A stretch of DNA of 42,251 nt from Escherichia phage PhiR40_1. A program made the translations under genes and the position numbers. The notes below the pieces were generated by a model, which was not told where the DNA came from, did not search any database, and was given only the letters and a program-made list of their open reading frames with translations. Where the stretch lies: the sequence record PV340560.1; one strand, given 5' to 3'. Shown here piece by piece: positions 1-139 of this stretch. Position 1 is the stretch's first letter. Every line of letters begins with the position of its first letter.

Positions 1-2
1 CG

Positions 3-18
3 TTGCACCAATGCTCGA
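3..18. other. attL core repeat (TTGCACCAATGCTCGA); reads ..VAPMLD in frame, a DusA-like N-terminal fragment
   Basis: 14/16 identical to 42234-42249; exact shared 8-mer ATGCTCGA. Confidence 0.55.
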
Positions 19-139
19 TAGGATGTACCGTTTTTGAAAAACAACTAGTTATACACTTTGTGGGAGCCTATTGGGAACCTGAAGTTTTGCTCTTTCTATT
101 CATATCTATTCATAAAGCACCATTTGCTGCCTTATCTGA

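Follow-up and report, generated by a model that had tools for sequence, protein, structure and literature searches.

Integrases associated with dusA were described as a family by Farrugia et al. (2015, Nucleic Acids Res 43:4547; PMC4482086), who reported them from more than 200 genomes, Escherichia and phage mEp460 included, and who named the integrases of mEp460, BcepIL02, DC1, BcepMigl, AH2 and H66 as dusA-associated. The elements of that family (DAI elements) were characterized by semi-conserved 21-bp repeats, a replaced 5′ end of dusA and putative promoters; about half of them were prophages, and prtN was present in 64% of the islands. Balasubramanian et al. (2019; PMC6328086) used the Stx phage 1720a-02 (phi-stx2dact) to lysogenise C. 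rodentium, and both attL and attR were sequenced. The phage had entered dusA about 100 bp into the gene at a core of 7 bases, with a phage 'dusA' ORF fused in frame; attP reads marking excision were recovered in vivo, from mice, and the position of int relative to the late genes was called non-canonical. Further, it was shown by a lacZ fusion that a dusA-specific Vibrio element in E. coli K-12 supplied a promoter and a 35-residue N-terminus and that expression was reduced (Durand 2021, PMC8409611). In the same work RdfN together with Int was necessary and sufficient for the excision of the dusA-specific element IMEVchUSA3, the location of int and rdfN across attP from each other was noted as the layout of the family, and ICE SXT at the 5′ end of prfC was cited as a parallel; the integrase and the target of SXT are unrelated, however, and SXT is a conjugative element, not a phage. 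The replacement-dusA arrangement is already known: it has been published, and it has been tested in near-identical and homologous elements. Since it is established that such an element hits a coding motif that is conserved and restores the gene it has interrupted, no new question was opened by the locus described here.

The window, i.e., the whole analysed stretch of 42,251 nt from Escherichia phage PhiR40_1 (PV340560.1), almost certainly represents one complete integrated mEp460-like lambdoid phage that was inserted site-specifically in codons 33-35 of dusA. The phage is an mEp460-like lambdoid siphovirus. Its closest phage record was PhiR55_1, which was 100% identical over window positions 17-25000 and ~96% identical over 85% of the remainder, and no complete genome carrying the entire window at 100% was identified, the best matches to its left and right ends being in different strains.

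No essential difference was found between the window and the DAI elements of Farrugia 2015. A tyrosine integrase gene diverged from the 5′ end of dusA and adjoined it, semi-conserved direct repeats flanked the element, a new dusA 5′ end was brought in with the original left as a stub, and a prtN homologue was present. Phage 1720a-02 was closer still: the identity was 97% for the DNA of the int-dusA′ region and 99.2% for the Int protein. The 7-base core of 1720a-02 lay inside the same sequence, its attB TCCAGTCGAGCATGGGAGC being the reverse complement of GCTCCCATGCTCGACTGGA, and the window repeat matched the attB of C. rodentium as given in PMC6328086; the core comprised 7 bases there versus the 8 bp identical here for E. 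coli. In contrast to 1720a-02, the window contained no stx genes, carried other cargo and had partly other structural genes, 61-63% of window positions 1-25000 being shared by the two phages. IMEVchUSA3 resembled the window in using the same K-12 dusA site, in replacing exactly 35 N-terminal residues and in having int and a PrtN-domain excision factor on opposite sides of attP. It differed in being a mobilizable island under IncC-plasmid activators with an AcaCD-dependent rdfN promoter, whereas in the window the candidate excision-factor gene was located where a lambdoid early-left region ends.

The window started with cgTTGCACCAATGCTCGAta and finished with caTTGCTCCTATGCTCGAct. A same-strand direct repeat was found at these ends, with 14 of 16 positions identical between TTGCACCAATGCTCGA (3-18) and TTGCTCCTATGCTCGA (42234-42249). 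The sequence-only reading had proposed terminal repeats of ~18 nt derived from dusA; the repeats were real, but they formed just the terminal part of an imperfect duplication of ~105 nt (86/105 nt identical), the left copy of which lay mostly outside the window. A scan of the whole window revealed no further copies of the 16-mer at ≤3 mismatches. When the window alone was shuffled, at least two 16-mer matches at ≤3 mismatches were obtained in 9 of 100 shuffles, which made the repeat only weakly unusual. Because the 16-mer statistics on the window alone were weak, a comparison of att sites was used as the deciding evidence, and it was this external comparison that made the repeats conclusive.

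Four sites were aligned, namely attB from K-12, attP from the mEp460 virion genome, attL from strain Z1323PEC0011 and attR from strain 1517k. The attB site read ...GGTTTAGCGTTGCACCA ATGCTCGA CTGGACGG..., and the attP site, located in the middle of the mEp460 record, read ...GGTTTAGCATTGCTCCT ATGCTCGA TAGGATGTACC.... The 8-bp ATGCTCGA was common to attB, attP, attL and attR, and mismatches flanked it on both sides. Upstream of this core, attL was host K-12 dusA (120/120), and downstream it was phage (58/60 to attP); attR was phage upstream (116/120 to mEp460) and host attB downstream (60/60). Strand exchange was placed in ATGCTCGA, as this was the sole stretch common to all four sites. The junction features of the window were as follows.

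1-10, plus strand: host arm of attL, made up of the final 10 nt of the original host dusA 5′ fragment (attL-K-12 identity 120/120)
11-18, plus strand: attL copy of the 8-bp core ATGCTCGA (four-way att comparison)
2-37, plus strand: C-terminal end of the truncated DusA stub, with ..VAPMLD followed by phage-encoded RMYRF, with the stop at 35-37 (translation)
42242-42249, plus strand: attR copy of the 8-bp core ATGCTCGA (four-way att comparison)

The core-to-core length of the integrated phage was 42,231 bp, positions 42250-42251 already being host dusA. The remaining ~95 nt of the host dusA 5′ fragment and the native dusA promoter were situated to the left of the window. Translation of the left end gave VAPMLD, RMYRF and a stop at 35-37, in line with the earlier reading of VAPMLD running into phage sequence with a stop.

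According to the mechanism proposed, the tyrosine integrase would exchange strands inside ATGCTCGA, which codes for Met-Leu-Asp of the conserved APMLD motif. At attR, the 35 phage codons are joined in frame with the host gene from codon 36 onward, and a full-length DusA of 345 aa, changed at its N-terminus, is kept. At attL, the host promoter and 35 host codons are left stranded in a stub of 40 codons. Excision by Int and an RdfN-like protein would bring back wild-type dusA. For this prophage, the attP expected on excision was predicted to be ...CATTGCTCCTATGCTCGATAGGATGTACC... and the attB ...CGTTGCACCAATGCTCGACTGGACGG.... Both kinds of excision-product sequence exist, as mEp460 virion DNA has attP and K-12 has attB.

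The flanking DNA was dusA on both sides, in agreement with the earlier proposal of integration into the dusA 5′ end. On the left the gene order was zur-yjbL/M-dusA 5′ stub, and the right flank comprised dusA-pspG-qorA-dnaB. The right 1.35 kb of the window matched E. coli chromosomes at 100% identity, and in these chromosomes int was followed by dusA, pspG, qorA and dnaB. The left 1.3 kb was 100% identical to chromosomes with zur, yjbL/M and then a 105-nt 'tRNA-dihydrouridine synthase, incomplete' pseudogene, the end of which coincided with the first bases of the window. The stub was labelled a partial pseudogene by RefSeq in strains Z1323PEC0011 and 1517k. In K-12 MG1655 the locus was uninterrupted (yjbM-dusA-pspG) with the same core, and the alignment to this empty site yielded the same boundaries. 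Both junctions were found in one genome, that of strain 1517k, ~40 kb apart. Of 5426 complete E. coli genomes, 726 (about 13%) had the int-dusA junction with at least 80% of the query covered. The exact prophage boundaries were set, and the partial 'tRNA-dihydrouridine synthase' pseudogene annotated by RefSeq beside such prophages was explained.

The right end of the window carried the replacement segment and, upstream of it, two conserved blocks.

42146-42250, plus strand: phage-borne replacement of dusA codons 1-35 (MHDNPETQKTNQTSAMPEKTGAYGSSRFSIAPMLD), delimited by K-12 alignment, mEp460 virion DNA and the RefSeq dusA start in lysogens
42122-42157, plus strand: conserved blocks AAAAATA and AAAATGCACGATAAT (alignment of 23 relatives)

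The right-end ORF, which reads ...SRFSIAPMLD and is open as far back as 42146, had previously been assigned to the correct frame (MPEKTGAYGSSRFSIAPMLD), but its start was at 42146 (MHDNPETQKTNQTSA..., MHDNPETQKTNQTSAMPEK...) and not at 42191; the RefSeq dusA start in K-12 and in lysogens was the base equivalent to window 42146. The phage copy was identical to K-12 in 86 of 105 nt and 25 of 35 amino acids, and 16 codons differed (6 synonymous and 10 non-synonymous). The similarity between phage and host ended a few bases upstream of the ATG, beyond which the int-dusA′ spacer was found. The RFS(V/I)APMLD segment, a beta-1 strand motif, was kept, and the 26 residues before it varied, among phage copies too. 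Of the claim that the phage brings its own promoter and first codons, the second part was borne out, the 35 codons being located beside int in mEp460 virion DNA. The promoter part was less direct: no sigma-70-like site was detected by a consensus scan of the 88-bp int-dusA′ spacer or nearby, and no convincing −35/−10 pair was recognized by eye around AAAAATA-N17-ATGCAC on either strand. Given the empty spacer scan, expression of the hybrid dusA in this phage is putative, and we infer a phage-borne promoter driving it from the lacZ fusion made with the homologous Vibrio element.

The conservation of the arrangement was investigated in 52 integrase relatives from other species, using one-genome-per-species contigs. 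The divergent neighbour of int was dusA in 34 of these, and in 25 of the 34 the DusA match was unbroken from residue 1 to 344/345 and began 85-102 bp from the int start. Kosakonia, Pluralibacter, Izhakiella, Mixta, Morganella, Proteus, Xenorhabdus, Serratia, Plesiomonas and others were represented among the 25, which indicated that the hybrid reading frame was maintained across genera. In the 23 relatives aligned, the distance from AAAATA to the dusA′ ATG (42146) was a constant 17 nt.

It was also observed that the blocks AAAAATA and AAATGCACGAAAAT persisted in relatives in which int did not adjoin dusA and the dusA′ frame had decayed, in one case to MHENQQK followed by a stop. As the blocks were kept without a dusA neighbour, DusA coding alone does not explain their conservation, and they could be a promoter or a site for an accessory factor.

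These observations bear on the alternative that integration inactivates dusA, the phage 5′ segment being a remnant of attP homology and the hybrid ORF silent or non-functional. Such an outcome was judged unlikely. It would agree with a spacer lacking a consensus promoter and with the dispensability of dusA in the laboratory (Farrugia 2015, PMC4482086); moreover, relatives at other loci retain the first conserved block while their dusA′ frame decays, so part of the conservation is not for coding. However, a silent remnant would hardly account for a DusA match unbroken in 25 of 34 dusA-adjacent relatives of many genera, nor for the preservation of RFS(V/I)APMLD although the rest of the segment drifts, and the lacZ fusion to a homologous element in E. 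coli K-12 gave reduced but present expression (PMC8409611).

A second alternative concerned the route of insertion, namely RecA-dependent homologous recombination through the 105-nt dusA-like segment, without the integrase. The 82% identity of the phage and host copies over 105 nt would provide some substrate for it, but the longest perfect match was far short of the RecA requirement. Furthermore, the same 8-bp core was the crossover in every lysogen examined, with the upstream mismatches all host-type at attL and all phage-type at attR, and experiments have shown that near-identical and homologous modules integrate and excise in an integrase-dependent manner. Such a route was considered highly improbable. 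The last alternative, in which the match between the two ends arose by chance or from the way the window was cut and the prophage lies beside dusA and not inside it, could draw on the 9 of 100 shuffles, but was refuted by the K-12 empty site and the four-way att comparison, given that host and phage sequence switch exactly at the core, that K-12 dusA is uninterrupted with the same core and that identical junctions recur in hundreds of genomes, and its probability was regarded as practically nil.

Site-specific insertion by the integrase thus remained the preferred reading, and the integrase gene was located next to the replacement segment.

40960-42057, minus strand: dusA-associated tyrosine integrase, 365 aa (Pfam PF00589, E 7.5e-21)
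40650-40898, minus strand: DinI-like gene downstream of int (Pfam PF06183)

The catalytic residues R222, H306, R309, H332 and Y342 were recognized by alignment to XerA (5hxy). The protein shared 98.6% identity with mEp460 Int. Its identity with the Int proteins of the Burkholderia phages BcepIL02, DC1, BcepMigl and AH2 and the Pseudomonas phage H66 was 34-36% over 93-96% of the length (E-values of about 1e-54 to 1e-62 for these five). It was concluded that the integrase of the window belongs to the dusA-associated integrase family; the comparison suggested by the sequence-only reading had matched the very integrases named in Farrugia 2015. The int gene (start 42057, minus strand) diverged from dusA′ (start 42146, plus strand) across a gap of 88 bp, and a similar gap, within a few bp, was found in most dusA-adjacent relatives.

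Some integrases with 58-64% identity were located upstream of genes other than dusA. From their N-terminal sequences these neighbours appear to be an srmB-like DEAD-box helicase, 6-phosphogluconolactonase, uracil phosphoribosyltransferase, an NlpC-like lipoprotein and dihydroorotate dehydrogenase. Their association with such integrases suggests retargeted specificities.

The candidate excision-factor gene was found at the other end of the prophage.

1239-1538, minus strand: PrtN-domain protein, likely an RdfN-type excision factor (Pfam PF11112, E 4.4e-24; PHROG 1300 'excisionase', E 2.5e-40)

With the ATG chosen by RefSeq the gene would span 1239-1511. A PrtN-domain gene was present across attP from int in mEp460, YeP2 and a Morganella phage. 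By analogy with RdfN, the PrtN-domain protein probably acts as the excision factor in this phage. It had been noticed earlier that int and the xis-like gene occupy opposite ends of the window, and this was accounted for by mEp460, where attP is located between int and the PrtN-domain gene, so that integration puts these genes at opposite prophage ends. The order in the phage circle is int, three arm-type sites, the diverged copy of dusA codons 1-35, the core, the IHF-like site, two arm-type sites, a variable cargo slot and the PrtN-domain gene.

The main addition of this analysis was a set of putative protein-binding sites in attP, i.e., arm-type Int sites and an IHF-like site, which is a modest refinement. 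Farrugia 2015 describes no arm-type or IHF sites, and for arm-type sites tied to dusA integrases the searchable literature gave only passing mentions in two general integrative-element papers. A motif search for YGGGARCCY returned 5 copies in the 42-kb window, all within 170 bp of the core, 3 of them in the P arm and 2 in the P′ arm.

42077-42113, no strand assigned: P arm, three putative arm-type sites, TGGGAACCC inverted at 42077-42085, TGGGAACCT at 42093-42101 and CGGGAACCT at 42105-42113 (motif search)
61-80, plus strand: P′ arm, two direct putative arm-type sites, TGGGAGCCT at 61-69 and TGGGAACCT at 72-80 (motif search)
39-51, plus strand: IHF-like site AAACAACTAGTTA, one mismatch to WATCARNNNNTTR, 28 nt after the core start

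The arm layout was kept in the relatives as an inverted copy that is followed after 6-7 nt by a direct copy and after a further 2-3 nt by another direct copy, and the motif itself varied by lineage (GGGAACCT, GGGGTGCT, GGTGTACY or GGTGTCCT). The Yersinia phage YeP2, whose attP is mid-genome, had its own motif in both arms, including GGGGTGCTATTGGGGTGCTG ~45 nt past the core. An IHF-like match at +28 was found in all four attP sites, i.e., those of the window, mEp460, YeP2 (a perfect match) and the Morganella phage IME1369_02. In strain 1517k the homology with the window stopped right after the second P′ arm site, which appears to mark the edge of attP at about window position 82.

The class of arm motif co-varied with Int residues 1-38 across genera. 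Two Morganella integrases were identical at 315 of 323 positions after residue 38 and at 24 of 38 before it, and their arm motifs differed; this pair looks like a natural swap of the N-terminal domain. In a Pfam search admitting E-values up to 10, Arm-DNA-bind_4 was matched below threshold in two relatives (E 0.07-0.08) and was not matched by the integrase of the window. We infer that Int would bind the arm sites and IHF its own site.

The arm and IHF-like sites fit a lambda-like intasome. As a model, the lambda intasome resembles the predicted attP complex in having a heterobivalent integrase, arm sites on both arms, a small DNA-binding excision factor and, separating the core from the P′ arm, an IHF-like site. 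Unlike lambda, the window encodes an integrase of another tyrosine-recombinase lineage (annotated Rci-like in the mEp460 record), its attP is placed between int and the excision factor and not beside int-xis, and its target is within a coding sequence that is repaired by the phage. The observations on the arm sites, the IHF site and the N-terminal swap could guide the prediction of att sites and the retargeting of integrases.

Cargo occupied the interval that separates the P′ arm from the candidate excision-factor gene.

140-168, plus strand: promoter-like TTGACC-17-TAGACT upstream of the cargo ORFs (consensus match only)
222-761, plus strand: cargo ORF of 179 aa, phrog_8416 (ORF, Pfam and PHROG searches)
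778-1212, plus strand: cargo ORF of 144 aa with a YafO-family toxin domain (Pfam PF13957, E 1.9e-21; RefSeq agrees)
1211-1228, no strand assigned: terminator-like bidirectional hairpin at the boundary of the cargo ORFs and the PrtN-domain gene (terminator scan)

The YafO-like ORF was preceded not by a YafN-like antitoxin gene but by the 179-aa ORF, which gave no match in Pfam and whose N-terminus was hydrophobic and resembled a signal peptide. The contents of the slot (window 82-1230) differed in the window, mEp460, Lys8385Vzw and strain 1517k, which gave four cargo sets; in the loci examined, the slot was at 3998-4901 in mEp460, 4113-5314 in Lys8385Vzw and 2205-3406 in strain 1517k. That of strain 1517k contained a Panacea-domain protein and two hypothetical ORFs.

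The native dusA promoter stranded at attL points into the slot, and all four cargo sets were co-directional with this orphaned host promoter. A scan of the left end of the window revealed no terminator-like site before 1211-1228. With co-directional cargo and no earlier terminator, the slot could be expressed from the orphaned dusA promoter. It was tentatively proposed, as a possibility with the odds somewhat against it, that the slot is a lysogeny-specific expression site run by the host dusA promoter.

Two minor observations concerned individual att sites. In strain Z1323PEC0011 the left junction was identical to that of the window, yet soxR was only ~37.6 kb from attL and no right junction was present 42 kb away, so the element at its dusA site seems shorter; it may be much shorter than 42 kb, perhaps a remnant, and strain 1517k was used in its place for the two junctions in one genome. 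In phage Lys8385Vzw (MT225100) the core ATGCTCGA occurred twice in tandem at attP (3843-3858 in the locus examined), which is probably artefactual, each of the prophage ends having included the core when they were circularised.
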